Of a DNA stretch of 64,000 bases, positions 10,819 through 53,916 are shown in pieces. This stretch comes from an uncultured Caldilineaceae bacterium (lineage in GTDB: Bacteria > Chloroflexota > Anaerolineae > Caldilineales > Caldilineaceae). The stretch covers positions 144,722-208,721 of the forward strand of contig OY282381.1 in the NCBI GenBank assembly GCA_958295915.1. Direction: 5' to 3'. Under the pieces are notes generated by a model, which saw nothing but the letters and a program-made list of their open reading frames with translations, had not been told where the DNA came from and ran no database searches. A program made the position numbers and the translations under genes. Every line of letters begins with the position of its first letter. Position 1 is the stretch's first letter.

Positions 10819-10849
10819 CAGTTCTCTCCAAGCAGGATTTTGAGCAGGC

Positions 10850-15452: not shown

Positions 15453-16436
15453 CTATTCTTCGCCTCCTGCGTAAAAGACCCAAAGACGCGCCGAGCGGAA
15501 GATGATCAGAGTTACGATCAGGGTGAACATGAACAACAGCCATGCCATGGCCGACGCATACCCCATCGTCAGGTATTGGAACGCATTCTTGTAGAGGTAG
15601 ATGGAATAAAACAGCGTCGTGTTGGCAGGGAAACCTGTGCCCCCCGTCATAATATAAGGGATGGCAAAGAAATTCAGCGCGCCGATAATGGATGTCACCA
15701 GATGGAAGAAGATCACTGGTGTCAGAATGGGAACTGTAACATTGCGGAATTTGGATAGGAAGTTGGCGCCGTCTACATCGGCTGCATCGTACAGATCTTG
15801 GGGGACATCCTGCAGACCGGCGAGGTATAAAATGATCTGCTGCCCGATGATCCAAAGCGCAAGCAGAACGAGTGTAGGCTTTGCCCATTGGGCGCATGTG
15901 AGCCAGCAGGGACCACGAACACCCAAAAACCTGAACGGTGTCTCGATCAGCCCGATACGCGGTGTGAATATGAAAACCCAGACCAGGGCCAGAGCGACTT
16001 CCGGCACAAGCGTCGGTAGAAAGTAGATCGTGCGATAGATTACCTGGCCCCGAATCTTGGCATTCAACATCAACGCCAATCCAAAAGCGCAGATGATGGC
16101 CAAAGGAATCGAGACCACCGCGAAGTAAACGGTATTATAGATTGCCGCCCTGAAGTCATCATCATCTGTGAACAGATCGAGGTAGTTATCGAGCCCGATC
16201 CATTGCGGATTCATGACGCCGTTGTACTTGGTAAAGCTATAGTACGCTGACGCCAGGGTCGGGTAAATCCAAAAGACAAGCAGGCCGATAATCCAGGGAG
16301 AGGCAAAGAGCAGACCGTTTATTGTATGGCGCGTCCCTTGAGACCAACGTCTGCGTGGATATTGGACGGGCGAGCCTCCGAGCTTTCCGGAATCGCTTGC
16401 TCGTTCGACAGTAACAGAGGAGAGGGCAATTGCCAT
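15453..16436 (-). CDS. Carbohydrate ABC transporter permease (MalF-like)
   Basis: EAA-type loop LYDAADVDGANFLSKFRNVTVPILTPV. Its stop lies 1 nt from the downstream permease start. Confidence 0.9.
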   Translation of the reverse strand: MAIALSSVTVERASDSGKLGGSPVQYPRRRWSQGTRHTINGLLFASPWIIGLLVFWIYPTLASAYYSFTKYNGVMNPQWIGLDNYLDLFTDDDDFRAAIYNTVYFAVVSIPLAIICAFGLALMLNAKIRGQVIYRTIYFLPTLVPEVALALVWVFIFTPRIGLIETPFRFLGVRGPCWLTCAQWAKPTLVLLALWIIGQQIILYLAGLQDVPQDLYDAADVDGANFLSKFRNVTVPILTPVIFFHLVTSIIGALNFFAIPYIMTGGTGFPANTTLFYSIYLYKNAFQYLTMGYASAMAWLLFMFTLIVTLIIFRSARLWVFYAGGEE

Positions 16437-19758: not shown

Positions 19759-20724
19759 CTATACGGTCAGAATGTCCGGCCCCTCGACGGCGGCAGCCTG
19801 TGCCAACGCGCCAGACGTCGCCAACTCGCCCATAGTAGCGAATGCGGCGCCTGGCTGCCGGCCTACATGCTCCGACACGGCATCGATCAGGCGAAAGGTA
19901 TGCTCATAATCGTCGGCAAGGCCATGGGTGTGCATTAACATGACGACAATCGGGCTTTCCTTGCTGATTCGGTCCAGGTCTTTCCGCGCCAATTCGATGA
20001 ATTCGGCGCTGCGCTGCCCGGCGCCGCGCCAGTTGTATTCGTTTATGATCGGCGCCTCGATGATACCCTCATACCAACGATAGGGCTGGCGTGGAATCGC
20101 AATCCTCTGTTCGGTATTCCCGCCAGTCGATTTCTGTTTGATGTGATTTGCATGATTGCGCTCATACCTCTCTACCCAGTCTTGCGTAAGCTTTCCACTG
20201 TTGTGAGGCAGATGCGCATAGCCGCTGCCGCTGATATACATACAGGTGTGATAGCCAATGCCGACTTCACGCAGGGCGGCAAACATGGGCTTGGAGATGG
20301 CCCCGCACGGCGCGCGAAATACGGTCGGGTCTACGCCCAGTTCGCGTGTGAAAATCTCCATTCCTTCTTCAATGCGCGCGCGCAAGTTGGCTAAGGTGTA
20401 GCGCGGCATCAACTCGTCGCGACGCTGGTCGAAGTCGGATTGGAGCGTCGGCAAAATCGCGGTCGCTGGCCAGGCGGGGGGTCCGAACTCGTAGCAGTCC
20501 GCATGGGTCAGGCCGTGCAGTTGCAGGTCGTGCCCAGCATCGCGCGCGGCGATAAGCGCCTCTTTCCATTCAGAAGAAAGAGGTTTGTCGCCGGGTTTGG
20601 GTATGGTGAACCAGGTAGACCCCAGTCCACGCGAACTAAAGAACTGACACGCGCGGCGCAACGATTCCACCATTTTGCTGCCGCCCGAACCGGCATCATC
20701 AATACTCCATACGTAGGTTGTCAT
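19759..20724 (-). CDS. Polysaccharide deacetylase-like / DUF2334-like protein
   Basis: WSIDDAG ... LQLHGLTH pattern resembles a divalent-metal deacetylase fold. Assignment rests on weak motif memory only. Confidence 0.5.
   Translation of the reverse strand: MTTYVWSIDDAGSGGSKMVESLRRACQFFSSRGLGSTWFTIPKPGDKPLSSEWKEALIAARDAGHDLQLHGLTHADCYEFGPPAWPATAILPTLQSDFDQRRDELMPRYTLANLRARIEEGMEIFTRELGVDPTVFRAPCGAISKPMFAALREVGIGYHTCMYISGSGYAHLPHNSGKLTQDWVERYERNHANHIKQKSTGGNTEQRIAIPRQPYRWYEGIIEAPIINEYNWRGAGQRSAEFIELARKDLDRISKESPIVVMLMHTHGLADDYEHTFRLIDAVSEHVGRQPGAAFATMGELATSGALAQAAAVEGPDILTV
20142..20170. repeat. Repeat family H copy inside a CDS
   Basis: TGTGATTTGCATGATTGCGCTCATACCTC matches 26122-26150 at 25 of 29 positions by eye, and matches 31765-31793. 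Confidence 0.75.
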
Positions 20725-30165: not shown

Positions 30166-31272
30166 CTACCACTGGCCAGTGATCGGTTCTGGCGTCAACT
30201 CCGCGGCTGCGGGCAGGCCGTGGGCAGGCGTGGCGTTGCGGATGCCGTCGAGAACCGCGGCGGTGACTACGTCGGCGGCTATAGCCCCAAGCAGGCTCAA
30301 TTCGAAGGGAGAATCCAGGGTAGCGGTTGCCAGGGCAAATAGACAGTCGCCGTCGTAGAGCGTATGGGCCGGACGAGTTGTGCGACTGACACCGGTCTGG
30401 GCCATCTGCGCCAATTTTGTGGCTTCGGATTTATTGAGGGAAAGATTGGTGGCGATGACCCCGATTGTCGTATTTTCCTGCATTGGGTAAGAAGCTGACG
30501 GCTTGGCGTCCCGCGCGGACTGGGCCGCAGAGTCTCCTCCAGTTGAATGGCGCAACGATGCCTGAAAGCTGGGAGGTTGCGCCATCCAAGGCGGTGGTCG
30601 AAAGAAGAAGGAGTCGAAACGCGCGGCGGCCACGGATACACTATCCACCAGCCGCCCGCTTTCCGGGTCCCGGGAGCCGGCCACCAGTTCTGCCCGCGCC
30701 GGATCCACTACATCGCCGAATGCGTTCACCGCCACCGCGGCGGCCACCACCGCGCCGCCGGGCAGGGCCACTGATGCCTGGCCCAAACCGCCCCGGGTGG
30801 CGTTCACCGTTCCCAACACTTTGCCCACCGTGCAGCCGACGCCCGCGCCGACAGAGCCGCGGCTGCCGTTCGCCGTGGTGGCGGTCTCGCAGGCAGCGTA
30901 GGCATCCTGCTGGGTTGGGTAGACAGTAGAGCCGGCAAACCCCAAATCATAAAGAATTGCCGCCGGCACGATCGGCACAGGCGCGGCCGGCGTCGGCCAA
31001 CCATAGCCCTGTTCAGCCAGCCAACAGACAACCCCATGAGCAGCCCCCAGTCCGTAGGCCGAGCCGCCGCTGAGGAGGATGCCGTGAACCTGATCCACGC
31101 GATTTATCGGATTGAGCAGCGCGGTTTCGCGAGTGCCAGGGGCCGAGCCGCGCACATCCACGCCGCAACAAGCGCCCTCCGGCGCCAAAACGACCGTGCA
31201 GCCGGTGCCGTGGAGGAGATCCGACCAATGCCCGACCAGCAGGCCGGGCACGTCTGCAAGAGCATTATTCAC
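30166..31272 (-). CDS. P1/S58 family peptidase (DmpA-like aminopeptidase)
   Basis: GLLVGHWSD, GCTVVLAPEG, DVRGSAPGTRE and LSGGSAYGL. GTG start. Confidence 0.82.
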   Translation of the reverse strand: MNNALADVPGLLVGHWSDLLHGTGCTVVLAPEGACCGVDVRGSAPGTRETALLNPINRVDQVHGILLSGGSAYGLGAAHGVVCWLAEQGYGWPTPAAPVPIVPAAILYDLGFAGSTVYPTQQDAYAACETATTANGSRGSVGAGVGCTVGKVLGTVNATRGGLGQASVALPGGAVVAAAVAVNAFGDVVDPARAELVAGSRDPESGRLVDSVSVAAARFDSFFFRPPPWMAQPPSFQASLRHSTGGDSAAQSARDAKPSASYPMQENTTIGVIATNLSLNKSEATKLAQMAQTGVSRTTRPAHTLYDGDCLFALATATLDSPFELSLLGAIAADVVTAAVLDGIRNATPAHGLPAAAELTPEPITGQW

Positions 31273-31855: not shown

Positions 31856-32281
31856 TCATGGCAAGATCGACAGCAGGTCTTGCAGCAGCGGGATGGCAAT
31901 GCCGGCAATGCCGAAACCCAGCATCCACTTCAACAAGCGCAATTCCGACTTCACGGCTGCCACATCGCTTTGCAGTTCAGATCTCAGACCCGTCATATCG
32001 CTTTGCAGTTCAGATCTCAGACCCGTCATATCACTTTGCAGTTCAGCTTTCAGACCCGCCATATCGCTTTTCAGCTCAGCTTTCAGACCCGCCATATCGC
32101 TTTTCAGCTCAGCTTTCAGACCCGCCATATCGCTTTTCAGCTCAGCTTTCAACGCCTGCATGTCGGTCTTCAACGCCTGCATGTCGGTCTTTAACGCCTG
32201 CATGTCGGCCTTGGTCGCCAGATGTTCGTAGGCGCCCTCGATGCGGGCAATGCGTTCCCCGTCCGCTGTTCTTTGTGTCAT
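31856..32281 (-). CDS. Tail-anchored coiled-coil repeat protein (paralog of 50405..50884)
   Basis: ERIARIEGAYEHLATKADMQ head, 3 x DMQALKT heptads, about 7 x 11-residue LKAELKSDMAG units, and a C-terminal TM LKWMLGFGIAGIAIPLLQDLLSILP. Confidence 0.8.
   Translation of the reverse strand: MTQRTADGERIARIEGAYEHLATKADMQALKTDMQALKTDMQALKAELKSDMAGLKAELKSDMAGLKAELKSDMAGLKAELQSDMTGLRSELQSDMTGLRSELQSDVAAVKSELRLLKWMLGFGIAGIAIPLLQDLLSILP
31964..32212. repeat. Coding tandem repeats: about six 33-nt units then three 21-nt units
   Basis: The unit ATCGCTTTGCAGTTCAGATCTCAGACCCGTCAT and variants, then CAACGCCTGCATGTCGGTCTT x3. Confidence 0.9.
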
Positions 32282-35977: not shown

Positions 35978-36730
35978 CTATCCTCTTTTCTCAAACTCCT
36001 CCCGCAATGCGTCGTATTCTGCAGGCACATCCATATCCCGGCGGATGCTGTCAGTGTCCAACGCCACGTAGACGATCTCCTCGCTGTAGCGATTCAGCAG
36101 ATCCCGTAATGATTGTTCTTTTCCCAGCGTCAGCAGCGCCGGCCACAACCAACGCGGCAAGTAAACAGGGTGTCCCCGTCGTCGATTGTGGCTGGGAATC
36201 ACGACCGCTGCGGGCTTTGTCTGAGCCTCGACGATGATCTGGTGGATCACACTTGCAGGCATATGCGGCTGATCGCCCAGGGCCAGCAGCGCGCCACTGG
36301 CTGACGCCTGCCCGTCGAGTAGCGCTTGAATCCCCACCTGATAGGAACGCAACATTTCATGGCGCGCGTAGTCGGGATTGGGGACAACCCAAGCCGGTCC
36401 AGCGGCCAGATGGTCTGCGACTTCAGCGGCGCGATGCCCGGTAATCACCAACACCGGCGTCGCGCCGCCGCGGGCAAGCGCATCCACGACAGACTCGATG
36501 ACCGTCCTGCTATCCCAGGGCAGTAGCGGCTTGAAACGCCCCATACGTCGGCTGAATCCGGCGGCCGCTACGACCGCGGCCACTGGCAACTCGGACGGCG
36601 CAACCTCCCATCGGCCTGATGATTGGGGGAACCCAGTCAAATCGTCCACCTTTGTTCTCCGGCCCAACCAACGCTCGCTACTGGCATCCATATATTCAGT
36701 ATACCACACGATTTCTACTCTGCTATCCAT
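35978..36730 (-). CDS. MobA/MocA-like molybdenum cofactor nucleotidyltransferase
   Basis: AAAGFSRRMGRFKPLLPW and ALGDQP motifs. Has an N-terminal extension of about 50 aa, so the true start may be further in. Confidence 0.75.
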   Translation of the reverse strand: MDSRVEIVWYTEYMDASSERWLGRRTKVDDLTGFPQSSGRWEVAPSELPVAAVVAAAGFSRRMGRFKPLLPWDSRTVIESVVDALARGGATPVLVITGHRAAEVADHLAAGPAWVVPNPDYARHEMLRSYQVGIQALLDGQASASGALLALGDQPHMPASVIHQIIVEAQTKPAAVVIPSHNRRRGHPVYLPRWLWPALLTLGKEQSLRDLLNRYSEEIVYVALDTDSIRRDMDVPAEYDALREEFEKRG

Positions 36731-41430: not shown

Positions 41431-41444
41431 AACGGAGCGTGGAG

Positions 41445-43091
41445 ATGAACAGAGTACATCCACTGATTCGAGTGGGCGGCCCGATTTTGGGCGTTCTCAT
41501 TCTCATTTATGTGATCAACGCCGGTGTAAGAAGATTCCAGGCGGATTTGAAAGCGGCCAGTGATGCCGAACGAGTGGCAACGCTGGCCGCCGCGGCCCAG
41601 TCGGAAGCTGAATCTGAAACAGAAACGCCCTCTTCCACAGCCCCGCCACAGGTCGAATCTACACAAGAAGAAGCCGTTACAGAGAGGGTCTTCTTCCTCC
41701 AGCCGACCGACCGCGCCACGGTTTCGTCACCACTGGAGATCGTGATGGAGGCCACCGGGCTGGTGGTCGAACCATCCGGCGAAGTGAATGAGGGGGCCGG
41801 GCACTTTCACATTCTTGTGGACACGGATTTCACGCCTGCGGGCGAAGTCATCATCACTGACGAACAGCATCTCCACTTTGGCAAAGGCCAATTGACCGCC
41901 ACCCTCGACCTGACGCCCGGCGAGCACACGCTGCGCTTGCAGTTCGCCGACGGCGCGCACACCGCCTTGGAGGGCGCGCAGTTCCAGGACACGATCACCG
42001 TCTTTGTGGAAGAGAGCGCGGCTCAGCAATCCGTGCGCTTTGTCCAGCCGACCGACCGCGCCACGGTTTCGTCACCGCTGGAGATCGTGATGGAGGCCAC
42101 CGGGCTGGTGGTCGAACCATCCGGCGAAGTGAATGAGGGGGCTGGACATTTCCACATTCTCGTGGACACGGATTTCACGCCTGCGGGCGAAGTCATCATC
42201 ACTGACGAACAGCATCTCCACTTTGGCAAAGGCCAATTGACCGCCACCCTCGACCTGGCGCCCGGCGAGCACACGCTGCGCTTGCAGTTCGCCGACGGCG
42301 CGCACACCGCCTTGGAGGGCGCGCAGTTCCAGGACACGATCACCGTCTTTGTGGAAGAGAGCGCGGCTCAGCAATCCGTGCGCTTTGTCCAGCCGACCGA
42401 CCGCGCCACGGTTTCGTCACCGCTGGAGATCGTGATGGAGGCCACCGGGCTGGTGGTCGAACCATCCGGCGAAGTGCGCGAGGGGGCTGGACATTTCCAC
42501 ATTCTTGTGGACACGGATTTCACGCCTGCGGGCGAAATCATCATCACTGACGAACAGCATCTCCACTTTGGCAAAGGCCAATTGACCGCCACCCTTGACC
42601 TGACGCCCGGCGAGCACACGCTGCGCTTGCAGTTCGCCGACGGCGCGCACACTGCCTTGGAGGGAGATGTCTATCGCGATCAGATTGTGATTGTAGTCAG
42701 CGCAGAGAGCCAGACCGAGACCGCTGGACAAGAACAAGCGCCCGTTGAATCTCTGCCGCAAGAGATAATCGATCTGGCCATCGCCGCTATGATCAAGACC
42801 GGCTGTAATAGCTGCCACATCACCCCTGGGCTGCCTAATGCGGCCGCCACCATGCTTGGCCCCGATCAGTCGAACATGGGCGTAGTGGCTGGTAGCCGCA
42901 TAGATGGCTATACAGCAGAGGAGTACATTCGCGAGTCGATTCTGTTGCCAAGCGCATTCATCGCTCCGGAATGTCCGATGGGGGTGGGGATGTGTCTCGA
43001 AGTAATGCCCCAGAATTACGGCGATCTGCTCACCGTGGAAGAATTGGACGCCATCGTCGCCTATTTGTTGACGCTCAAGTCTGAGCCGTAG
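41445..43091 (+). CDS. Membrane-anchored protein with 3 x DUF4399-like repeats and a C-terminal class I cytochrome c domain
   Basis: N-terminal TM. Three 115-aa units containing GAGHFHILVD. C-terminal heme motif CNSCH with downstream EVMPQNYG and AIVAYLLTLK. Confidence 0.8.
   Translation: MNRVHPLIRVGGPILGVLILIYVINAGVRRFQADLKAASDAERVATLAAAAQSEAESETETPSSTAPPQVESTQEEAVTERVFFLQPTDRATVSSPLEIVMEATGLVVEPSGEVNEGAGHFHILVDTDFTPAGEVIITDEQHLHFGKGQLTATLDLTPGEHTLRLQFADGAHTALEGAQFQDTITVFVEESAAQQSVRFVQPTDRATVSSPLEIVMEATGLVVEPSGEVNEGAGHFHILVDTDFTPAGEVIITDEQHLHFGKGQLTATLDLAPGEHTLRLQFADGAHTALEGAQFQDTITVFVEESAAQQSVRFVQPTDRATVSSPLEIVMEATGLVVEPSGEVREGAGHFHILVDTDFTPAGEIIITDEQHLHFGKGQLTATLDLTPGEHTLRLQFADGAHTALEGDVYRDQIVIVVSAESQTETAGQEQAPVESLPQEIIDLAIAAMIKTGCNSCHITPGLPNAAATMLGPDQSNMGVVAGSRIDGYTAEEYIRESILLPSAFIAPECPMGVGMCLEVMPQNYGDLLTVEELDAIVAYLLTLKSEP
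41688..42722 (+). repeat. Three tandem 345-nt coding repeats, near identical
   Basis: Units start at 41688, 42033 and 42378. Units 1 and 2 differ at only about 10-15 positions by eye. Confidence 0.92.
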
Positions 43092-43948: not shown

Positions 43949-44299
43949 TCGGTTCCCTCCCATATAACGACCGGACTCAACAGTTTGATACTATCGAGTA
44001 TAGCACATTTTTTCGGGTCGTCAACCGTTTTCGAAGAATAGCCGCCAGGTAGATGCGCTCTGTACGCCGCGCTACGGCGGGAGGCTCTGGCACTATGATA
44101 TACTATTGTCACTTCATACTACAGTCGCGACCCGGGGTATTTATCCGTAACCGGTACTGCAACCCCACAGCCGACTCGTGCGTAATGGAGTACAGACAGC
44201 CGCGCCTGGCTGTCAATCTGAGGACAACGGCGTCTGACAGGCTATTACTGACAGACTATTACTGGCGAATTCATTCACAAACCGTTCAAGGTGACAAAC

Positions 44300-44668
44300 A
44301 TGGGTACAGTCGGCAATATTATATGGCTCATTTTCGGCGGTCTGATCGTCGGGCTGGTGTATATCTTTGGTGGGATGCTGCTTTGCATTACAATCATCGG
44401 CATTCCCTTCGGGCTGCAATCGATGAAACTCGGCGTTGCTACCTTCGCGCCTTTTGGCAAGGAAGTTGTCGAGGTGAGCGATGCAAACAGCACGTTGCGC
44501 GTTCTTTTCAATCTGCTGTGGCTGGTGCTGTTCGGCTGGGAGATTGCGCTGGCGCATCTGTTCTCAGCGCTGGTTCTCACTATCACAATTGTGGGAATCC
44601 CCTTCGCCAAACAGCATATCAAGCTGATCCCGCTCTCCCTCTTCCCGTTCGGGCGCCATCTACAATAG
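44300..44668 (+). CDS. yccF: YccF-family inner membrane protein
   Basis: Duplicated IIGIPFG / IVGIPFA motifs. Start is either ATG 44300 or GTG 44291. Confidence 0.85.
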   Translation: MGTVGNIIWLIFGGLIVGLVYIFGGMLLCITIIGIPFGLQSMKLGVATFAPFGKEVVEVSDANSTLRVLFNLLWLVLFGWEIALAHLFSALVLTITIVGIPFAKQHIKLIPLSLFPFGRHLQ

Positions 44669-44762
44669 ATCATTACAATAGACCATTACAATAGACCATT
44701 CGCAAATCTCTACGCATTTTCGCTTTGGTTCTCTCCAGATTTTTCATGCTCCCCGCGCCTAC

Positions 44763-44805
44763 CGAAATTAGGAATTGTTCAATTCGTAATTCATAATTCG
44801 TATGG
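44763..44805. repeat. AT-rich repeat family E, second copy, upstream of the mrp operon
   Basis: CGAAATTAGGAATTGTTCAATTCGTAATTCATAATTCGTATGG. Confidence 0.8.
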
Positions 44806-44847
44806 GTGCAATGATGGCATACAGTCAAGGAGTGGTTTGAACAGAGA

Positions 44848-47385
44848 ATGTTAGCAGCGTCCATCGGTCTCTTGCTGACAAGCGGATTGATCCTCTACCT
44901 GTTGCGCCCGGAGCGGCGTGCGTGGGCCGGCTGGTTGGCCGCGCTGCCACCGCTGGCGGTCACCGTCTGGCAGGTGGATGTATCCGCTGCGTCAGTTTTC
45001 GGCTGGGGCGCCGCGGCAAAGCCAAGCCTTCTTGATCTACAGAATGGCGCAATCCAGGCTGAACGGTACAACTGGGTCGAAAGCCTGGGGATGGTTCTTT
45101 CCTTCCGCCTGGATGGCCTTTCTCTCCTTTTTGGGCTGATCATCACCGGCATCGGCGCTGTGGTTGCCCTCTACACCCACTACTATCTGGAAAACGACGA
45201 GCGCCAAGGCTATTTCTACCTGTCTCTGTTCGCGTTTATGGCCTCGATGTTAGGGATAGTCTGGGCGGACAATCTGCTGACTCTTTTCGTATTTTGGGAA
45301 GGCACCAGCGTCACCAGCTATCTGCTCATCGGCTACAGCCATCAATCGGCAGCTGCCAGAGGCGGCGCGCGCAACGCCTTCATCATCACCGCGGCCGGTG
45401 GGCTGGCTCTGCTGGTGGGTCTGATTCTGTTGGGACAGGAGGCCGGCAGCTATACGATCAGCGCGATCATCAGCCGCCCTGGGCTGACCGACTCACCGCT
45501 CTATCCGGCCATTCTGATTCTGATTCTGCTGGGCGCGTTCACAAAGTCCGCCCAATTTCCCTTTCACTGGTGGCTGCCCGGGGCAATGGCCGCGCCAACG
45601 CCTGCCAGCGCCTATCTGCACTCGGCCACCATGGTGAAGGCCGGCATCTATCTTCTGGCCCGCCTGCACCCAGCTCTCAGCGACTCCCCACTGTGGCTAT
45701 GGGCGCTTCTCGTCTGTGGCGGCATTACGATGCTTCTGGGCGCGGTCATTGCCATCCGCCATTGGGATATGAAAGCCCTGCTGGCCTATGCCACGGTCAG
45801 CCAACTGGGCATCCTCACCACCTTGCTGGCCTTCCGCAGCGAGGCTGCGCTGCTTGCAGTCGTCGCCGGCGTCTTGGCCCATGCGCTCTACAAAGGGCCT
45901 CTCTTTCTGGTAGCGGGCATCGTCGATCACGCTACCGGCAGCAGGGATTTGAGGCGACTGGCCGGCCTGTGGCGCGCGTTGCCCCTCACGTCCGCTGTAG
46001 CCATTTTTGCGGGGCTGTCCATGGCCGGTTTTCCGCCGCTCTTTGGTTTCGTCACCAAAGAGGCCCTGTTGGAAGGGTTCCTGAAAGCAGGCGAGCACGG
46101 AGACGCGGCCGGCTGGGTCGCCCTTGGCGCCGCAGTCATAGCAGGGGCGTTTGCCGTCGCATACAGCCTGACACTCCTATGGGAAGCGTTTCTACGGCCA
46201 GATGTCGCCGACGACCAGGGAGATGCGCCGCTGACGCCGGCGGGACGCCTGCGGGCCCAGGGGGTCCAAGTCCACCACGCGCCGGCCGCGCCGTTCGTCG
46301 CCGCGCCGCTGGTTCTGGTGGCGTGTGGGACGGTAGCGCCCTTTGTTTTGCAACCATTGGCTGCTCTGATTACGCCAGCTGCGGCAGCCATCTACGGCGG
46401 ACCTGTGCAAAAATATGTGGCTCTCTGGCATGGATTTACGCCGGCGTTGCTGCTAAGCCTGTTCGCCATTGCCCTGGGTGTCGGGCTGTTTCTTAACAGA
46501 TCCTTCCTGCGCCGGGCGTTGAACCTGCTACCCGATGGGCTACGGGGCGTTGTGTTGTTCCAAAACATCCTGGACGGCATCTACGCGTTGGGCCAGATTA
46601 CCGCCCGGTTTTCACAGGGCTACACATTGGCTACGCAGGTGGCCATCGTTCTGCTTGCGGCCTTTGTGCCGGTGGTAGCGGCCCTGCGCTACATCCCCTT
46701 GAACGCCCTGATGCCGGCAAAGGAGCCGTCTCTGGGGGCGCCGGAGACGATTCTGGTTTTGCTGACGGTCGTGTCGGCCTACGTCACGGTGCGGGCCCGC
46801 ACGCGATTGGGCGCAATCATCAGCCTGGGCGTTGTCGGCGTCACTGTGACGCTGTTTTACATTTTCTTCAGCGCGCCGGATCTGGCGCTGACACAGTTGC
46901 TGATCGAAGTGCTGACCCTCGTGCTACTGGTGCTGGTATTTACGAAATTGCCGCCCGATACGCGGCCGCCCATGCAGAGGATAAAACAGGCGCGCACTAT
47001 ACTGGTGGCGCTCGCCGCCGGCGCCTTCGGCTTTTTTCTCGTGCTGTTCAATAGCAGCGAGGCCATGCAGGCTGCGCAGTCCATCAGCGGATACTTTCTG
47101 GAAAATGCTGTGCCCGGCGGCCACGGCGCCAATGTAGTCAATGTCATACTGGTTGATTTCCGTGGTTTCGATACAATGGGCGAAATCACCGTCTTGGCCC
47201 TGGCGGCTCTCGGCGGCTATGCGCTGCTGCATGCCCCACGCGTGCATCTGCCGGACGAAAAGCAGTCGAGACGCCTGCGCGCCCAAGGAGGGTCTGCAAT
47301 CGCAGGCGGCTCGCCTGCGATTGCAGACCCTGCAAAAGAGGAAATGGAAGAAGAACCCACAAACCTATCTGCCAATTCGGGCTGA
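44848..47385 (+). CDS. mrpA: Na+/H+ antiporter subunit A (MrpA/MnhA)
   Basis: NuoL-like proton-pumping domain (WEGTSVTSYLLIGY) plus a C-terminal MrpB-like domain. First gene of a seven-gene mrp cluster. Confidence 0.92.
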   Translation: MLAASIGLLLTSGLILYLLRPERRAWAGWLAALPPLAVTVWQVDVSAASVFGWGAAAKPSLLDLQNGAIQAERYNWVESLGMVLSFRLDGLSLLFGLIITGIGAVVALYTHYYLENDERQGYFYLSLFAFMASMLGIVWADNLLTLFVFWEGTSVTSYLLIGYSHQSAAARGGARNAFIITAAGGLALLVGLILLGQEAGSYTISAIISRPGLTDSPLYPAILILILLGAFTKSAQFPFHWWLPGAMAAPTPASAYLHSATMVKAGIYLLARLHPALSDSPLWLWALLVCGGITMLLGAVIAIRHWDMKALLAYATVSQLGILTTLLAFRSEAALLAVVAGVLAHALYKGPLFLVAGIVDHATGSRDLRRLAGLWRALPLTSAVAIFAGLSMAGFPPLFGFVTKEALLEGFLKAGEHGDAAGWVALGAAVIAGAFAVAYSLTLLWEAFLRPDVADDQGDAPLTPAGRLRAQGVQVHHAPAAPFVAAPLVLVACGTVAPFVLQPLAALITPAAAAIYGGPVQKYVALWHGFTPALLLSLFAIALGVGLFLNRSFLRRALNLLPDGLRGVVLFQNILDGIYALGQITARFSQGYTLATQVAIVLLAAFVPVVAALRYIPLNALMPAKEPSLGAPETILVLLTVVSAYVTVRARTRLGAIISLGVVGVTVTLFYIFFSAPDLALTQLLIEVLTLVLLVLVFTKLPPDTRPPMQRIKQARTILVALAAGAFGFFLVLFNSSEAMQAAQSISGYFLENAVPGGHGANVVNVILVDFRGFDTMGEITVLALAALGGYALLHAPRVHLPDEKQSRRLRAQGGSAIAGGSPAIADPAKEEMEEEPTNLSANSG

Positions 47386-47425
47386 GCGCGCCGCAGGGTT
47401 TGCGCAGCGTGCGAAGCCCGAATTC
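47374..47425. repeat. Repeat family B, short form, inverted, containing the mrpA stop codon
   Basis: AATTCGGGCTGAGCGCGCCGCAGGGTTTGCGCAGCGTGCGAAGCCCGAATTC. 12-nt terminal inverted repeats. Confidence 0.85.
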
Positions 47426-47445
47426 TGAATCGCTGAGTCTCTATC

Positions 47446-47973
47446 ATGCCGGAACTTTATCTCCGTCTGTTGAATCGCATCCTGACACCTGTCCTACTGC
47501 TGCTGGCTCTCTTCCTGCTGCTGCGCGGACACAACCTGCCCGGTGGCGGATTCATCGCCGGGCTGATGGCGGCATCCGCCTTTGAGCTGCAGATTTTGAG
47601 CCGTGGGCATGAAACGGTTCGCCAAGCGATCGGCCCGTACCTCAACAGCGCGATTGGATTGGGGCTGGGGGTTGCCATCTGCTCTGGAATCGCCGGACTG
47701 CTGGAAGGCACTTTCTTCAAAGGCGTGTGGGTTAACCTGCGTCTGCCCCTATTGGGCCAAGTGGATATCGGCACACCGCTACTCTTTGATCTGGGGGTAT
47801 TTCTTATTGTGGTAAGTGTAACGACTTTCTATCTTCTTGGCCTCAGCCGGGCCTCGGACGGCGCCATCTCCCAGCTTTCGGGCGCGGTTGCGGACGCGCC
47901 GTTCGATGCAGACAGCGTCGGGGAAGGAGAGGCAGCCACAGGGGTTGCCCCTAGAGGAAGGGCCGAATCATGA
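47446..47973 (+). CDS. mrpB: Na+/H+ antiporter subunit B (MrpB/MnhB)
   Basis: [16 protein letters not shown] motif. The C-terminal tail contains repeat D. Confidence 0.9.
47854..47906 (+). repeat. Palindromic repeat family D, copy 1 (in-frame in mrpB)
   Basis: TCGGACGGCGCCATCTCCCAGCTTTCGGGCGCGGTTGCGGACGCGCCGTTCGA. Confidence 0.9.
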
Positions 47974-48503
47974 TTGCCTTACTCCTCGCGATTGCGGTCG
48001 GAAGCCTCTTTGCGTCTGGCGCATATATGATAATGCGAAGAGGACAGATCAAGCTGATCCTCGGCCTCGGACTGTTGAGTCACGGCGTCAATTTGCTGCT
48101 GTTCGGTTCAGGCGCTCTGACGATGGGGCGTCCGCCAATCTTTCTGGACAAAAAAAAGTACGCCGAGACCCTGGCGACGGTCGTCCCGGCGGATCCTCTG
48201 CCCCAAGCCCTGATCCTGACAGCCATAGTCATCAGCTTCGGTATTACTGCCTTCGTGATCGTGTTGATCAACCGCAGGCATACCATCACCGCCACGGACG
48301 TCGTGCATGGCGAGCTTGTGCCTCTGCTGCGGGAAGGGGATCCCTTCGACTTCAGCGAATCTCAGGACACTGACGAGTACGACTGGCTGGCCTATGAGGT
48401 GGATGAGGTCTATGATAGCGACGAATCGCTGACTGGCTCAACACAGCGGCCGACATCGGAGATCGACGAATCCGAGGCTATGAAAAGGGTCGACTACCGA
48501 TGA
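47970..48503 (+). CDS. mrpC: Na+/H+ antiporter subunit C (MrpC/MnhC, NuoK-like)
   Basis: [18 protein letters not shown] overlap with mrpB. About 60-aa acidic C-terminal extension. Confidence 0.9.
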
Positions 48504-50125
48504 ACCTGAGTGCCATGTTGAATGGCGCGTCCGCAACCGCGCCCGAAAGCTGGGAGATGGCGCTATCCAACCTGCTGGCTGCGCCGGTCGCCATTCCCCT
48601 CCTGACGGCTGCCCTCATTCTGCTCTTCGCCCGTTGGGGAGGCCGACGGCGCATCCGTCTGCAAGGCGTCCTTACGGGGCTGGCCCTATTCCTCAATCTG
48701 GCGGTTGCCTTATTCCTGTTTCAGGCGACCGCGGGACGGGGCGAACGATTCGTTCTACAGATGGGAGCATGGTCGGCGCCCTTTGGCATCACCGTCTATG
48801 GCGACGGCCTCTCGGCCACGCTCTTGTTGCTGACGGCGCTGGTAGCGATGGCTGTATATCCATTCGCTGTCGCCACAATCGACTACCACCGGGAGCGGAT
48901 GGGCTTTTACCCCTTGTATCTGTTACTTCTGATGGGTGTCAACGGAGCGTTCTTGGCGGGTGATCTCTTCAATCTGTATGTGTTCTTTGAGGTGCTGCTG
49001 ATGGCGAGCTTCGTGCTGCTGACGGTCGGGGCGCAGCCAGCCCAGACGAACAGTGGAATTCGTTACGTTGTCCTCAATTTGCTGGCATCGACGGTGTTCT
49101 TAGTCGCTGCCGGGGTCGCATACGGCACTTTGGGCACGCTCAATATGGCCCAGATCGCGCAGCGGTTGCCGCTGGCTTCTGCGGCAGTGCGCACGGTCTT
49201 CGCCGGTCTGTTGCTGGTTGGATTCGGCAGCAAGGCCGCTATCTTTCCGCTCTTCTTCTGGCTGCCGTCCAGCTACCACACGCCACCGCCGGCGGTCACA
49301 GCTCTGTTTGGCGGGTTGCTGACAAAAGTCGGCGTGTATACGCTCTTTCGTAGCTATACGCTCTTCTTCCCCGATCTGCTCATCGACTGGCAGCAGCCGC
49401 TGCTGACTTTGGCCGGGGCGACGATGCTCGTGGGCGCGCTCGGCGCGCTGGCCCAGCCGGGGATCCGTCGGCTGCTCAGCTTTCACATCATTAGCCATGT
49501 AGGCTTTATGCTGATGGGCCTCGCGGTCGCGCTGAGCGGCAATCAGTTGGCCATCGGCTTCGGTCTGGCGGCCGCAGTGCTGTACCTCTGTCATCATATG
49601 ATCGTCAAGACGGCGCTGATCATGGCTGGGGGGGCGGTGGAACTCTATATGGGCAGCGACCGCTTGGCTTCCATCGGTGGGCTGGTGACTCGACAGCCTT
49701 TTCTGGCATTTCTCTTTTTCCTGGCCGCTATCTCACTGGCCGGCATTCCCCCTTTCAGCGGCTTCGTGAGCAAATTGAGTCTGTTGCAGATCACCCTGGA
49801 TACGCGACACTGGCTGGTGTCGGGTGTAAGCGTCTTCGCCAGCCTCTTGACTATGATCAATATGATACGCCTCTGGCGGGAGTCTTTCTGGGGTGAGTAT
49901 AAACGGCCAGGCCGGATCCCATCCCGCATCTTGCAGAGCAAAGCCCGTCAGTGGCTCATGCTGACTCCAATCGCCGTGCTTGTATTGCTCAGCCTCGGTC
50001 TGGGCATTCTGGGAGAGCCGGCCTTCCGGTTGACAACGCGGGTGGCGCAGCAGGCATTGGATCGCCAAGCGTACATCGAAGCGGTAAGACCAGCGGCTAG
50101 TGACCCATGGTCGGTGAAACGATGA
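48500..50125 (+). CDS. mrpD: Na+/H+ antiporter subunit D (MrpD/MnhD, NuoN/M-like)
   Basis: ATGA overlap with mrpC. Typical proton-pump TM core (FFWLPSSYHTPPPAVTALF). Confidence 0.92.
   Translation: MNLSAMLNGASATAPESWEMALSNLLAAPVAIPLLTAALILLFARWGGRRRIRLQGVLTGLALFLNLAVALFLFQATAGRGERFVLQMGAWSAPFGITVYGDGLSATLLLLTALVAMAVYPFAVATIDYHRERMGFYPLYLLLLMGVNGAFLAGDLFNLYVFFEVLLMASFVLLTVGAQPAQTNSGIRYVVLNLLASTVFLVAAGVAYGTLGTLNMAQIAQRLPLASAAVRTVFAGLLLVGFGSKAAIFPLFFWLPSSYHTPPPAVTALFGGLLTKVGVYTLFRSYTLFFPDLLIDWQQPLLTLAGATMLVGALGALAQPGIRRLLSFHIISHVGFMLMGLAVALSGNQLAIGFGLAAAVLYLCHHMIVKTALIMAGGAVELYMGSDRLASIGGLVTRQPFLAFLFFLAAISLAGIPPFSGFVSKLSLLQITLDTRHWLVSGVSVFASLLTMINMIRLWRESFWGEYKRPGRIPSRILQSKARQWLMLTPIAVLVLLSLGLGILGEPAFRLTTRVAQQALDRQAYIEAVRPAASDPWSVKR
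48518..48570 (-). repeat. Palindromic repeat family D, copy 2 (inverted, in-frame in mrpD codons 7-24)
   Basis: TTGAATGGCGCGTCCGCAACCGCGCCCGAAAGCTGGGAGATGGCGCTATCCAA is the reverse complement form of copy 1. Confidence 0.9.
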
Positions 50126-50232
50126 AGAATGTAACGCAAAGGCGATGAGGAAGAATACAACGCAAAGGCGCAGAGACGCAAAGGACGCAAGGAACCCCCT
50201 GGAAACATCTTGGCTGCTTTGCGTTAAAAATT
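50126..50232. repeat. Family A-like repeat (ACGCAAAGG-rich) after mrpD
   Basis: AACGCAAAGGCGCAGAGACGCAAAGGACGCAAGGAA ... CTTTGCGTT. Confidence 0.6.
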
Positions 50233-50404
50233 CATCATCCCCATCTTGAGACGCACCCATTCCGTATTCATGGTTACGCAGTAGTTGACAAAGCAGGTAG
50301 AATAAGAGAATAAGGGCAGGATGTGAAAGATCGACTTCTACAGCGCCTCTTCCGAGCAGAGGCGCAAGTCAACCTCCTCTCTGACCGGTCAGGAGACTAA
50401 ACCT

Positions 50405-50884
50405 ATGGCAACGACAGCGGCGCCCGCCTCCCTGGAAGAACGCATCGCACGGCTGGAAGCGCAACGCAACGCCCCGATGCCCACTGAACGCCTCGCCCGC
50501 ATCGAAGGCGCGTACGAACACCTGGCAACCAAAGCCGATCTGCAGACCGTCAAGGCGGATATCGCAACCGTCAAGGCGGATATAGCAACTGTCAAGTCGG
50601 AGCTACAAGGAGAGATAGCAGCCGTCAAGGCGGATATAGCAACTGTCAAGTCGGAGCTACAAGGAGATATTGCAGCCGTCAGGTCGGAACTGCAAGGGGA
50701 TATCGCAGCCGTCAGGTCGGATATCGCAACTGTCAAGTCGGAGCTACAAGGAGAGATGGCGGATGTTCGCGTCACTGTGCAGGCCGTCCAATCGGAACAG
50801 AGAGCGCTCAAGTGGATGATGGGCATCGGGATTGCAGGCATTCTGTTCCCGCTGCTCCGTGACCTCCTGGCGCAGTTGCCCTAG
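50405..50884 (+). CDS. Tail-anchored coiled-coil repeat protein (paralog of 31856..32281) inserted between mrpD and mrpE
   Basis: RLARIEGAYEHLATKADLQ head, VKADIAT heptads and VKSELQGEIAA hendecads, and a C-terminal TM LKWMMGIGIAGILFPLLRDLLAQLP. AGGAGA ribosome site. Confidence 0.82.
   Translation: MATTAAPASLEERIARLEAQRNAPMPTERLARIEGAYEHLATKADLQTVKADIATVKADIATVKSELQGEIAAVKADIATVKSELQGDIAAVRSELQGDIAAVRSDIATVKSELQGEMADVRVTVQAVQSEQRALKWMMGIGIAGILFPLLRDLLAQLP
50549..50764. repeat. Coding tandem repeats of 21-nt and 33-nt units
   Basis: GTCAAGGCGGATATCGCAACC x2, then GTCAAGTCGGAGCTACAAGGAGAGATAGCAGCC and variants. Confidence 0.88.
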
Positions 50885-50924
50885 CCAACACACCCTAGCC
50901 ACTGATCACTGCAGTTACTGACTT
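50883..50924. repeat. Repeat family C fragment between the coiled-coil gene and mrpE
   Basis: CTAGCCACTGATCACTGCAGTTACTGAC. Confidence 0.65.
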
Positions 50925-51563
50925 ATGCAGCGTCTCCTTGTGCTTAATCTGTTCATTTCACTGCTATGGCCGATTCTGAACGGTGACCACTCATTGCGCG
51001 CGCTGCTCATCGGTTTCATCTTAGGTTTTGTTCTGCTGTCGATTGTGCAACGGAAGTACGGGTACTATACACTGAAACTTTTCAGATTCACCGCCTATGT
51101 CCTGTATGCGATCCTGCAAAGCAACCTGCGGTTGGCCGCGATAGTGCTTGCCAACGCCTTGCGCTCTACATCCAGCCTGCGCCCGGGCATTGTAGCCGTG
51201 CCGCTTGCGTTGACCAATCCTTTGGATATTACAGTGTTGGCATCGATCATCACCCTGACACCTGGCACCTTAAGCGTTGATTTAGACGAGAATGTTCACG
51301 GGCATATTTGGCCCTACAACGGGTCGGACGCCGCAACCTCCCAGCTTTCGGGCGCGGTTGCGGACGCGCCGTCCGATTCTGACGACGAACTGGTGGAGGC
51401 AAAAGCGGACGGCGGCGCGCTTCAGCATCCGAAACTGCTGCTTGTCCACACCGTACATATCGTCGAGCCAAAGGCGTTCCGGGCAGAAATCAAACACAAC
51501 TTCGAACGCCCGATCCTGGAGCTGCGGTGGCTTCTTGAAGAGTTGGATGCCGCGGACATGTGA
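50925..51563 (+). CDS. mrpE: Na+/H+ antiporter subunit E (MrpE/MnhE)
   Basis: LNLFISLLWPILNG and ITLTPGTLSVDL motifs. About 45-aa internal insertion containing repeat D. Confidence 0.88.
   Translation: MQRLLVLNLFISLLWPILNGDHSLRALLIGFILGFVLLSIVQRKYGYYTLKLFRFTAYVLYAILQSNLRLAAIVLANALRSTSSLRPGIVAVPLALTNPLDITVLASIITLTPGTLSVDLDENVHGHIWPYNGSDAATSQLSGAVADAPSDSDDELVEAKADGGALQHPKLLLVHTVHIVEPKAFRAEIKHNFERPILELRWLLEELDAADM
51324..51376 (+). repeat. Palindromic repeat family D, copy 3 (in-frame in mrpE)
   Basis: TCGGACGCCGCAACCTCCCAGCTTTCGGGCGCGGTTGCGGACGCGCCGTCCGA. Confidence 0.9.
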
Positions 51564-51579
51564 GGAAAAACAAGCAACG

Positions 51580-51981
51580 ATGAGCAACGAACTTTTCGAA
51601 CTGAGCCTGGGTGTACTGATGACACTGCTGACATTTTCCCTGCTGCTCTGCTTCTGGCGGCTGCTGCGCGGGCCGAACATCCCCAACCAGACAGTCGCAT
51701 TCGATCTGATCTCGATCCATGCGGTCGGCATTTTTGTTCTGTTTGCCGTGACCAGCCGGTCGTATGTTCTGTTAGAAGGTGCGATCATCACAGCAGTGCT
51801 CGGATTTCTGGGCACGATGATGTTTGCCCGCGCCTTGGAACGCTCCCCCCACACGAGATGGTTGGAACGCCAGACCAAAGGGGAGGAGTACTCATCTCCC
51901 GACCCGACCATCAGGGGCAACATGCAGGCGAGACGCCTGCGTTCCCCGGTAGAAAGGCGCTTCAATGGACCCGTTGACTAA
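51580..51981 (+). CDS. mrpF: Na+/H+ antiporter subunit F (MrpF/MnhF)
   Basis: LLCFWRLLRGPNIPNQTVAFDLI motif. ATG 51580 lies within the longer ORF 51292..51981. About 40-aa C-terminal extension. Confidence 0.85.
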   Translation: MSNELFELSLGVLMTLLTFSLLLCFWRLLRGPNIPNQTVAFDLISIHAVGIFVLFAVTSRSYVLLEGAIITAVLGFLGTMMFARALERSPHTRWLERQTKGEEYSSPDPTIRGNMQARRLRSPVERRFNGPVD

Positions 51982-52354
51982 GAACCTGATCGTCATTCTC
52001 CTCGCTACCATCGGTACGTTCTTTCTACTCATCAGTAGCCTTGGCATACTGCGGTTGCCGGATGTATTTACGCGAATGCACGCGGCCGGCACGGCTTCGA
52101 CACTGGGAATCAGTTGCCTGCTGCTGGCGACTGGGGTCTACTTTCTTGAGGATGGGCAGATGTTCCGTATGATCGCGCTGATCATACTTTTCTTTGTGAC
52201 AGCGCCCATCGCCACCACAACGATGGCCAGAGCCGCCTATCGCATGAGCGACTCTGACCAATTTTTGCTTGCGCATGACGATCTGGCCGCGCTTTCCGAT
52301 CAGGATTTTCAGGATGAAAGGATGAGTGACGGCCCGCAGGCCAGTGTACAATGA
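51965..52354 (+). CDS. mrpG: Na+/H+ antiporter subunit G (MrpG/MnhG)
   Basis: LGILRLPDVFTRMHAAGTASTLG motif. Confidence 0.9.
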   Translation: MDPLTKNLIVILLATIGTFFLLISSLGILRLPDVFTRMHAAGTASTLGISCLLLATGVYFLEDGQMFRMIALIILFFVTAPIATTTMARAAYRMSDSDQFLLAHDDLAALSDQDFQDERMSDGPQASVQ

Positions 52355-53916
52355 CTCAGAACGACCTGATTCTCGCAATCGATCTGGGCAGCTCCTCCAT
52401 ACGGGCGTCCGCCTACCAGACGAACGGCGAACGACTGGAAGACGTGTCGGCGTATCGGTACACGCAACAGGCTGCCGACGGCACATTTGATCCCTATACC
52501 GTCACGGAACTCGCAGAGCAGGTGGTCAGTGAATGTCTGGAACGGGTACGGGCGTTGCGCGGCGAGTATCGCTTTCTGGCAGTTGCGTGGACCAGCTTCG
52601 CCATGAGCTGGGTCGGGGTAAATAGTAGCGGTCAGCCGGTCACACCTGTGTACACCTACGCCGACACCCGCAGCGGGCCTTATGCGGATAGATTGCAGCG
52701 GGAATTGGAACAAGAAGGCGCTTTCGACAGCACATGCCGACGCACAGGCACACCGATTCACAGCGCGTACGCGCCGGCGCAACTGCTCCGACTGGCAAGC
52801 GAAGAGCCCGAGCGGCTCGCGCGAGTCGCCTTTTGGCAGACTCTTGCCTCTCACCTGTTGGCCCGCTGGCAGGGCCGTCCCTTTGCGCCTATCAGCAGCA
52901 GTGAAGCCGGCTGGACAGGACTGTTGAATCGCGATATGTATTCCTGGGATGCGGAACTTGTGCGGCGGATCGATCTTGGCCGAGAGAGTTTGCCTTCTAT
53001 TATTGACTATGCGAAATATACGCATAGTCTAGCCGATCCTTGGGCCAAGCGCTGGCCGGAATTGGCGCAGGCGCCTTTCCTCCTGGCAGTGGGTGATGGC
53101 GTCGGCGCCAATCTCGGCAGCGGCTGTACAGACAACCGTCGCATCGCCCTGACCATCGGCACGACCGCAGCCATGCGGGTAGTCATCCCCATAGCGGAGA
53201 GGAGCTCTCAGCCTGGCGCTCAGATCGACTTCGGTAGGGACGTCCCTTGTGGGCAGCCCGACGCGAGCGATCCTGTACTGGAGGCACCTGCCGGGCTATG
53301 GAGCTACCCCATCGACAGTAGCCGTTGGCTCCTGGGCGGCGCCTTGACCGATGGCGGGTCTCTCTACTCTTGGCTACACGAAATATTGGCGGTGGAAGAT
53401 AGCGATGCGCTGTTGGCGAGGGCCGCGCGGTTGGCGCCAGACGCACACGGACTGACCATTCTACCTTTTTTGCGCGGAGAGCGCGCGCCTGGCTGGGCCA
53501 CCGAAGCCACTCTCACGATCAGCGGAATGACGCCGGCGACGACTCCAGCCCACATCATCCGGGCGACCTTCGAGGCAATCGCCTTCCGCTTCCGCCTGAT
53601 TTACGATCTACTCAGGCCCTATCTTGCCCCTGACAGTGAAATCGTCGCCAGTGGCGGCGCGCTCCAAGAGAACGGTCTATGGCGACAAATTCTGGCGGAT
53701 GTTCTGCAGACGCCGGTGCATCTGGTTGATGTGGATGAGGCTACCAGTCGCGGCGCGGCGATTCTGGCTCTGCAAGCGCTGAATCTTCCGCAGCCACCAC
53801 TTCCGCCAACCATACACACTGCCATGCCCGACAAACAGGCGGGCAAACGATATGAGGCGGCGACGCGCCGTCAGGAGGAACTCTACCGGCGAGTCATAGG
53901 CGTTCCATACCCGTAG
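52351..53916 (+). CDS. FGGY-family carbohydrate kinase (gluconokinase/xylulokinase-like)
   Basis: LAIDLGSSSIRAS phosphate-1 motif and GGALTDGGS. ATGA overlap with the mrpG stop. Confidence 0.85.
   Translation: MTQNDLILAIDLGSSSIRASAYQTNGERLEDVSAYRYTQQAADGTFDPYTVTELAEQVVSECLERVRALRGEYRFLAVAWTSFAMSWVGVNSSGQPVTPVYTYADTRSGPYADRLQRELEQEGAFDSTCRRTGTPIHSAYAPAQLLRLASEEPERLARVAFWQTLASHLLARWQGRPFAPISSSEAGWTGLLNRDMYSWDAELVRRIDLGRESLPSIIDYAKYTHSLADPWAKRWPELAQAPFLLAVGDGVGANLGSGCTDNRRIALTIGTTAAMRVVIPIAERSSQPGAQIDFGRDVPCGQPDASDPVLEAPAGLWSYPIDSSRWLLGGALTDGGSLYSWLHEILAVEDSDALLARAARLAPDAHGLTILPFLRGERAPGWATEATLTISGMTPATTPAHIIRATFEAIAFRFRLIYDLLRPYLAPDSEIVASGGALQENGLWRQILADVLQTPVHLVDVDEATSRGAAILALQALNLPQPPLPPTIHTAMPDKQAGKRYEAATRRQEELYRRVIGVPYP

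Follow-up and report, generated by a model that had tools for sequence, protein, structure and literature searches.

A hairpin-forming DNA repeat in six protein genes of a Caldilineaceae chromosome, three of them in the mrp operon

Repeat copies and host genes

We analyzed a 64-kb stretch (the window) of the chromosome of an uncultured Caldilineaceae bacterium (Chloroflexota; 5,064,531 bp), which contains a complete mrp operon; the Pfam assignments include MnhB, Proton_antipo_M, MNHE and the remaining Mrp subunits. A short, hairpin-forming DNA repeat occurs here in six copies, one each in six different protein genes, and three of these genes, mrpB, mrpD and mrpE, belong to the operon. All copy counts refer to the window. 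The copies (c1 to c6), their host genes and the other genes of the operon are as follows.

c1, 47854..47906, plus strand: 53/54-nt form, at residues 137-154 of MrpB, in the C-terminal tail past the last transmembrane helix
c2, 48516..48569, minus strand: 54-bp insertion, mrpD codons 6-23 (element core at 48518-48570)
c3, 51324..51376, plus strand: 53/54-nt form, in the middle of a variable, predicted-disordered MrpE loop (residues 134-151)
c4, 30543..30589, minus strand: 47-nt form (stem of 14 bp, no GGACGC) in a variable loop of the peptidase S58 gene
c5, 36591..36610, plus strand: exact 20-nt truncated remnant, TCGGACGGCGCAACCTCCCA (left arm and start of the loop), in the N-terminal extension of the MocA-like gene
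c6, 16362..16408, plus strand: 47-nt form with a strongly diverged stem, in codons 10-25 of the minus-strand ABC permease gene
mrpA, 44848-47385: by Pfam
mrpB, 47446..47973, plus strand: 175 aa, host of c1
mrpC, 47970-48503: by Pfam
mrpD, 48500..50125, plus strand: host of c2, called as 541 aa in public collections
mrpE, 50925..51563, plus strand: 212 aa, host of c3
mrpF, 51580-51981: by Pfam
mrpG, 51965-52354: by Pfam
Peptidase S58 (P1 family) gene, 30166..31272, minus strand: host of c4
MocA/NTP_transf_3-like gene, 35978..36649, minus strand: host of c5 (the GTG at 36649 is the probable start, by alignment to the start of the orthologue in locus L020)
ABC transporter permease gene (BPD_transp_1), 15453..16436, minus strand: host of c6

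An earlier note on this DNA had described a 53-mer at 47854-47906 on the plus strand and variants of it in two further Mrp genes. The 53-mer is present exactly as written; c3 differs from it at 4 positions and c2, as the reverse complement, at 5, all of which lie in the terminal arms. The Mrp gene identities given there agree with Pfam, and the quoted peptides are present in the translations. A 31-nt core, CCCAGCTTTCGGGCGCGGTTGCGGACGCGCC, is identical in c1, c2 and c3, and had zero matches in 100 dinucleotide-preserving shuffles of the window.

The same note regarded the absence of further copies as a refutation of a mobile element; in fact, c4, c5 and c6 lie in unrelated genes of the window. 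Of these, c4 was found by repeat finding and a search with a 16-nt core, c5 by an arm-motif search, and c6 with a covariance model based on the full copies c1 to c4. In that first model c6 had an E-value of ~1e-3, and ~7e-13 after it had been added to the rebuilt model, the second value being partly circular. E-values were 1e-12 to 1e-18 with nhmmer (four copies) and 1e-13 to 1e-18 with the covariance model (five copies, c6 included in the model). Two additional candidates in the covariance-model run R1, at 19806-19859 and 20262-20315, disappeared under the improved model R2. The copies contain 60-73% G+C.

The copies are translated differently in their hosts: c4 is read in another frame than the Mrp copies, giving WMAQPPSFQASLRHST; c6 is read as ERASDSGKLGGSPVQ, in a fourth frame/orientation; and c5 gives WEVAPSE in the MocA-like gene. 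The four combinations of frame and orientation yield SDGAISQL..., WMAQPPSF..., ...ESWEMALS and ...SGKLGGSPVQ. Since six copies lie in six genes in four combinations, a shared protein motif is ruled out and the similarity is that of a DNA-level repeat. In this respect the original description, a palindromic DNA repeat that leaves its host frames open and behaves like the Rickettsia palindromic elements (RPE), holds.

Structure of the repeat unit

The unit is a hairpin of 47/48 or 53/54 nt, whose arms read TYGGAY(R)GCGC... and ...GCGCCRTYCRA. A stem of 11 bp (long form) or 14 bp (short form) encloses a sequence-conserved loop of ~19 nt (19-25) with the motif CTCC.AGCTTTC.GG. The long form has an additional hexamer in the 3' half of the loop, where GTTGCG-GACGCG resembles a diverged tandem duplication. 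In c6 the stem letters have changed, yet all 14 pairs are retained, as is the loop motif CTCC.AGCTTTC.GG.ATCG.

In the five full copies, whose alignment was fitted to the covariance model (a caveat on all of these statistics), 94% of the stem cells are paired as compared with 29-48% when the 3' partner is slid, 6 of the 14 stem pairs have changed on both sides, and neither the pairing nor the compensatory value was reached in 500 shuffles. In a MAFFT alignment of four copies, 95% of the stem cells are paired versus 29-46% with slid partner columns. The 11-nt terminal inverted repeats proposed earlier are therefore real, and the proposed internal GGCGCG/CGCGCC stem is visible. The local folds of the copies have energies of ~-21 to -33 kcal/mol.

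Two CG-to-TA double changes in the four-copy alignment divide the ends into two types: TCGGAC/GTYCGAT in c1, c3 and c5, and TTGGAT/ATTCAAC in c2 and c4. Thus c2 combines c4-type ends with a c1-type interior, and is not a simple copy of c1. From these mosaic ends we infer that there must be either additional copies not sampled here or recombination among the copies.

The non-Watson-Crick stem positions (in c1, c2, c4 and c6) are mostly G-T on the forward strand of the element, with one common position and three extra ones in c6; the reverse strand would have one. This bias hints, weakly, at constraint on the forward single strand of the element. No Rfam family reached its gathering score at any copy, and the whole window gave only a tRNA at 1054-1137. 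The copies were also considered as intrinsic terminators and rejected, as none appeared in a terminator scan of 44000-53000 and the flanks are without T runs.

The filled and empty mrpD sites

For comparison, we used the syntenic mrp loci of five relatives (L006, L007, L023, L024 and L025) and three loci (L020-L022) for the S58 gene. Where they are named, the MrpE and S58 homologues are from Caldilineaceae or Chloroflexi. MrpD is ~92% identical in L006 and L007.

In all five relatives the N-terminus of MrpD reads M(N/A)(L/V)SANLLA, and the underlying DNA is GAGCG-CCA-AYCT with nothing between. In the window, mrpD contains exactly 54 extra bases (18 codons), with CCA at both junctions. Owing to this repeated CCA (TGG on the element strand), the insertion can also be placed at 48513-48566. 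By comparison of these sequences, c2 is proven to be a recent in-frame insertion of 54 bp, because the five relatives carry the empty site.

The effect of c2 on the protein depends on the start codon. If translation begins at the retained ATGA overlap at 48500, as in the MrpD form in public protein collections, c2 would add 18 residues. The copy also supplies an in-frame ATG at 48557, from which MALSNLLAAPV would be read, close to the ancestral N-terminus MALSANLLAAPV. A Leu codon (CTA) that follows this ATG is specific to c2 and breaks one stem pair; this change may reflect selection on the peptide. At its other end, the C-terminus of MrpD is ~29 aa shorter than in the relatives.

Sites of the other copies

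The remaining copies lie in protein segments that vary among homologues. The MrpE segment of ~44 aa between SVDL and LLVH, which had been taken for an insertion of ~45 aa, is a variable loop common to dozens of Caldilineaceae MrpE proteins (~214 aa), and the repeat accounts for 18 of its residues. The loop is absent from more distant homologues and from the solved Bacillus and Anoxybacillus structures. The AlphaFold2 predicted local distance difference test (pLDDT) score is below 50 at MrpE residues 123-168. In the DNA comparison, the c3 peptide was not found in the MrpE of the relatives, where the loop is too variable to define a clean empty site.

Similarly, c4 lies in a loop of the S58 protein that follows FRPP and varies in length. 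Compared with its nearest homologues, the window protein has 17 additional aa, and DNA comparison with the nearest relatives gave no clean empty site since this loop is also too variable. For the permease, the best representatives (~50% identity) begin aligning 12-21 residues later than the window protein, and this extra N-terminal length is consistent with an insertion, although not proof of one. The N-terminal extension of the MocA-like protein that contains c5 is variable and unconserved, and the permease extension is likewise unconserved. All copies lie in unconserved or disordered protein segments.

Note that the unusual length of the Mrp subunits has another origin. The extra length of MrpB, C, D and E, which the earlier note had listed beside the element, is also found in relatives without the repeat (MrpB 173, MrpC 179, MrpD 552 and MrpE 213 aa), and on these figures it is a Caldilineaceae-wide trait that does not come from the repeat.

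The mrpB copy

The copy in mrpB differs from the others in that all relatives have colinear sequence at its position (SDGAxLxxxGxAAP...), without the hexamer. Between c1 and the mrpB tails of the relatives, 22-30 of 46 positions are identical (48-65%), and the tails among themselves share 22-31 of 46. The copy c4, although in a non-homologous gene, is identical to the same tails at 20-27 of 46 positions, and c4 and the tails have GGCAT in common and lack the hexamer GGACGC. The mrpB-tail similarities have shuffle p-values of at most 0.002. Judged from these similarities, the whole repeat family is homologous to the mrpB copy. Since homologous sequence, in decayed form, occupies this position in all relatives, c1 is the oldest copy and is orthologous, and its locus is possibly the source of the family.

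The earlier proposal of lineage-specific insertions consequently holds for mrpD, with its 54 bp and five empty sites, and not for mrpB. It had also been proposed that homologous residues at the same positions in distant orthologues would speak against an inserted element; this is partly the case, for the mrpB copy only, where the relatives carry orthologous sequence.

The tails of the relatives keep partial stems, but RNAalifold applied to the orthologous mrpB tails together with the copies gave no consensus structure. When the relatives' own mrpB tails were used as queries, no extra copies were found in their loci. The tail lies past the end of the solved MrpB structures. In L025 (4662-4691), the MrpB tail is 16 aa shorter and reads TCGGACAGCGCGGCGTCCGAT, that is, the two arms of the element abutting, as though the loop had been lost by deletion or had never been inserted.

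Distribution outside the window

Searches of larger collections gave little. A pattern scan with a 23-nt degenerate core had 5 matches in 185,579 GTDB species genomes, and a degenerate-core scan of the JGI metagenomes had 10; in both sets the flanks were dissimilar and the number was that expected by chance, so these candidates were rejected. There was no match in viral contigs or plasmids. A comparison of six-frame peptides with 5.8 billion proteins returned, at E<=10, no other proteins than the source genome's MrpE and MrpB; the search was so insensitive that the exact 18-aa match in MrpD also failed to appear, and its outcome therefore does not bear on copy number. With nhmmer and the covariance model, no copy was found in ~150 kb of the relatives' DNA, apart from one borderline hairpin. 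Within the sequences covered, the expansion in its present form is specific to the lineage of the window.

The borderline hairpin, TTGGGCGTCGC...GCGGCGCCCAACTGG, is intergenic in L023 (378-429, minus strand), upstream of a 103-aa gene. It scored ~21 bits (E ~0.005-0.008) and was not counted as a copy; it may be a distant relative of the family.

Interpretation and alternatives

The observations establish a discrete, hairpin-defined DNA unit in several unrelated genes and in different frames, with at least one recent insertion. The best explanation, which we consider probable though far from certain, is that the copies form a lineage-specific, non-autonomous family of hairpin-forming mini-repeats, which is copied as a discrete block and survives in frame in disordered protein segments. 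Under this explanation, the unit would be copied as a block into new sites, as demonstrated at mrpD. A copy that lands in a poorly constrained segment would add 16-18 residues and be tolerated, because its length is a multiple of three and stop-free frames are used, while copies that break frames or strike structured regions would be lost to selection. As the element encodes nothing, its movement would depend on an enzyme acting in trans that recognizes either the hairpin or the ends of the element, or else on the copying of hairpins during repair or replication. The mrpB locus would represent the oldest copy and probably the source lineage, and the young mrpD and mrpE copies would descend from that lineage since they have the identical 31-nt core. 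Most likely, the repeat has no function in the cell and is selfish or neutral DNA.

A further step would be that the family was born from host coding sequence: in this lineage, the hairpin of the mrpB tail would have become a template for copies in other genes, and resemblance of the arms to the target (TCNGAY or TTGGCGC-like) would have directed integration. We regard this origin as quite unlikely. If true, it would represent the de novo origin of a mobile, protein-coding palindrome, and a mechanism that seeds new disordered linkers in the proteins of a free-living bacterium.

Several observations weigh against a mobile repeat family. Among 39 open reading frames (ORFs) of the window, Pfam identified no transposase and no REP-associated tyrosine transposase (RAYT; REP denotes repetitive extragenic palindromic sequences). 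A TGG repeat flanks c2, where the empty site confirms it, and also c4; none is evident at c1, c3 or c6, so that no consistent target-site duplication is seen. Three of the six copies are in one operon and all six are within 35 kb; this clustering, in a copy number known for the 64-kb window alone, could point to local copying rather than genome-wide transposition. The left ends of the copies in mrpB and mrpE coincide with pre-existing Ser-Asp codons, and the TTGGCGC of the empty mrpD site resembles the element end, which makes homology-guided copying conceivable. The mrpB copy itself behaves as ordinary orthologous coding sequence. Finally, the six open frames of c1 and c3 were dismissed as a sign of selection and given no weight, because 7% of random 53-mers from the window are likewise open in all frames.

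A second explanation, the main rival of the first, does without a transposable family. Here, a native, hairpin-coding segment of the mrpB tail would have been copied a few times into nearby genes, either by replication template switching or by ectopic gene conversion, with microhomology at the GC-rich arms as the primer; there would be no dedicated enzyme, and the family would be confined to the neighbourhood. It agrees with the finding that c1 is as close to the relatives' mrpB tails as these are to each other, and with the likeness of c4 to the same tails in GGCAT and the absence of GGACGC. The cores of c2 and c3 equal that of c1 at distances of 0.6 and 3.4 kb, with c2 inverted as template switching predicts, and the empty mrpD site both resembles the element end and has 3-nt microhomology at the junction. 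The absence of copies from the sampled relatives and public collections, and of a transposase from the window, also fits. However, c2 ends in TTGGAT/ATTCAAC, the c4 type, rather than in the TCGGAC/GTTCGAT of c1, and the copied block has the same discrete ends at five places. Moreover, the unrelated operon of c6 lies at a distance of 31 kb, and the stem of c6 is paired although its sequence is wholly different; this argues for a long independent history under structural constraint. We consider local copying rather unlikely.

A third explanation holds that selection maintains the hairpins as functional structures, in RNA or DNA, of the mrp operon, such as a translation or processing signal or an RNase III site formed by c1 and c2 across mrpC. 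Three copies are indeed in one operon, and partial stems persist in the relatives' mrpB tails. In addition, c1 (47856-47904) and c2 (48520-48568) form a 49-nt inverted repeat, 94% complementary, that brackets the whole of mrpC; the 49-bp duplex is predicted at -115.5 kcal/mol, versus -51 for both local hairpins. On the other hand, copies are also found in the unrelated S58, MocA-like and permease genes, the same operon in five relatives is without the mrpD and mrpE copies, and neither a consensus structure in the orthologous tails, an Rfam match nor a terminator-like tail was found. Relative to the host mRNA, copies are found in either orientation, c2, c5 and c6 lying antisense, and this, together with the relatives that have no copies, makes a regulatory RNA role unlikely. 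Taken as a whole, this explanation seems to us very improbable. The c1-c2 inverted repeat is a possible substrate for RNase III or for DNA inversion, and c1 and c3, as direct repeats 3.4 kb apart, could mediate a deletion.

Finally, a protein-level linker motif, kept by peptide selection or domain shuffling, is hardly credible: the forward copies in MrpB and MrpE encode nearly the same 18 residues, but the same DNA gives unrelated peptides in four frames/orientations, which effectively refutes it, and moreover the synonymous positions are identical over the 31-nt core and the peptides sit where homologues show no conservation.

Comparison with known repeat families

In-frame insertions of MITEs (transposable elements of the miniature inverted-repeat type), RPEs and REPs have been documented (PMC10969869, PMC3733652). 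The earlier note had cited the Rickettsia elements as the established precedent; the likeness in behavior stands, but they are not the only one, as intragenic REPs, ERIC, BOX and others have also been described (PMC10969869, PMC3733652).

Like RPE-1 and related elements (Ogata et al. 2000, 2002, as summarized in PMC10969869), the repeat described here is palindromic and non-autonomous, lies in frame in unrelated genes (housekeeping genes in the case of RPE), adds a peptide where it is tolerated, has no transposase in cis, and differs in presence between related genomes. However, RPEs are ~100-150 bp long and are found in the AT-rich, reduced genomes of obligate intracellular alphaproteobacteria (PMC10969869), whereas the present repeat is 47-54 bp long, GC-rich and found in a 5-Mb Chloroflexota genome of the free-living type. 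RPE-1 encodes one conserved peptide, whereas our repeat is read in at least four frames, and, unlike RPE, one of its copies is orthologous to native coding sequence of the relatives. Because length and base composition differ, homology to RPE is unlikely; the 185,579 species genomes of the pattern scan, among which Rickettsia can be expected, contained chance matches only.

The repeat also resembles the intragenic REPs tagged with GTAG or CGTC, including RPE-4 and RPE-6 of R. conorii and those of Opitutus terrae (Di Nocera et al. 2013, PMC3733652). These are short stem-loops with stems of 5-13 bp, which occasionally lie within known genes, often at the N- or C-terminus, and are read as tolerated insertions (PMC3733652). 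In contrast, no copy described here contains GTAG or CTAC; GACG/CGTC is present in c1 and c3, absent from c4 and not terminal, so that there is no conserved tag; and the loop is long (19-25 nt) and sequence-conserved. In addition, REPs and REPINs are imperfect palindromes of 20-40 nt, mainly extragenic, often downstream of genes and in inverted pairs, whereas our six copies are all intragenic single units and RAYT is absent from the 39 ORFs.

With bacterial MITEs (Correia/NEMIS, ERIC, BOX, RUP and the Anabaena MITEs; PMC10969869), the repeat shares terminal inverted repeats, small size, lack of autonomy and the occasional in-frame fusion with host ORFs described for them (PMC10969869). Its inverted repeats have arms of 11-14 nt, with 94-95% of the cells paired. 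MITEs are generally ~100-400 bp in size, so the present repeat is shorter. It differs also in that target-site duplication is not consistently evident and no parent insertion sequence with matching ends was identified in the window. The literature searched mentions GTAG REPs in Chloroflexi, but we found in it no description of such a repeat from this phylum or from Caldilineaceae. The repeat thus belongs to neither the RPE nor the REP family; it is a new and unusually small sequence family, in a new phylum, of a known kind of phenomenon.

The findings indicate that palindromic selfish DNA can colonize reading frames outside reduced intracellular genomes of the Rickettsia type, and that the unit can be as small as 16-18 codons, here in a GC-rich, 5-Mb Chloroflexota chromosome. 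As side effects, the copies bring new peptide linkers, mRNA hairpins of high stability and recombinable repeats within one operon, where direct and inverted copies together could drive rearrangements. The filled and empty states of mrpD and the decayed orthologues in mrpB provide a tractable case for following the origin of an element, its choice of targets and the gain of linkers. For annotation of these genomes, they are a warning that a repeat can be the origin of an N-terminal extension or a loop 'insertion'.

Neighbouring features

Between mrpD and mrpE, the window has a specific insertion of ~0.8 kb (50126-50924), where the five relatives have 80-117 nt; it is this insertion that removes the ~29 aa from the C-terminus of MrpD. 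It opens with a palindromic repeat of another family, AACGCAAAGG...CTTTGCGTT, of which further copies are found at 2361, 2528 and 19645. A second small family, TTCGGGYTTCGCACGATGCGC...GCGGCGCGCTCA, has an inverted copy at 47379-47428, over the mrpA stop codon and the mrpA-mrpB spacer, and other copies near 10846, 11140, 21858, 25732 and 27776. Taken together with the hairpin copies, these two sites indicate that at least three different repeat families have hit the mrp operon.

The insertion also contains an ORF (50405-50884, 159 aa) that encodes a coiled coil of 11-aa repeats with a C-terminal transmembrane helix. A 141-aa paralogue of this protein is encoded at 31856-32281 on the minus strand, with the same RIEGAYEHLATKAD start, the tail LKWM.G.GIAGI...LL.DLL and 33-nt tandem repeats.

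MrpF (51580-51981) has 133 aa, as compared with 103 aa in four relatives. Its extra length, which had been noted together with that of the other subunits, is due to the loss of the ancestral stop codon that followed ...ERQxKxDE, and a read-through tail of 30 aa overlaps the start of mrpG. Outside the operon, at 41439-43091, three tandem repeats of 345 nt, 91-100% identical, correspond to three DUF4399 domains in one ORF of 550 aa.

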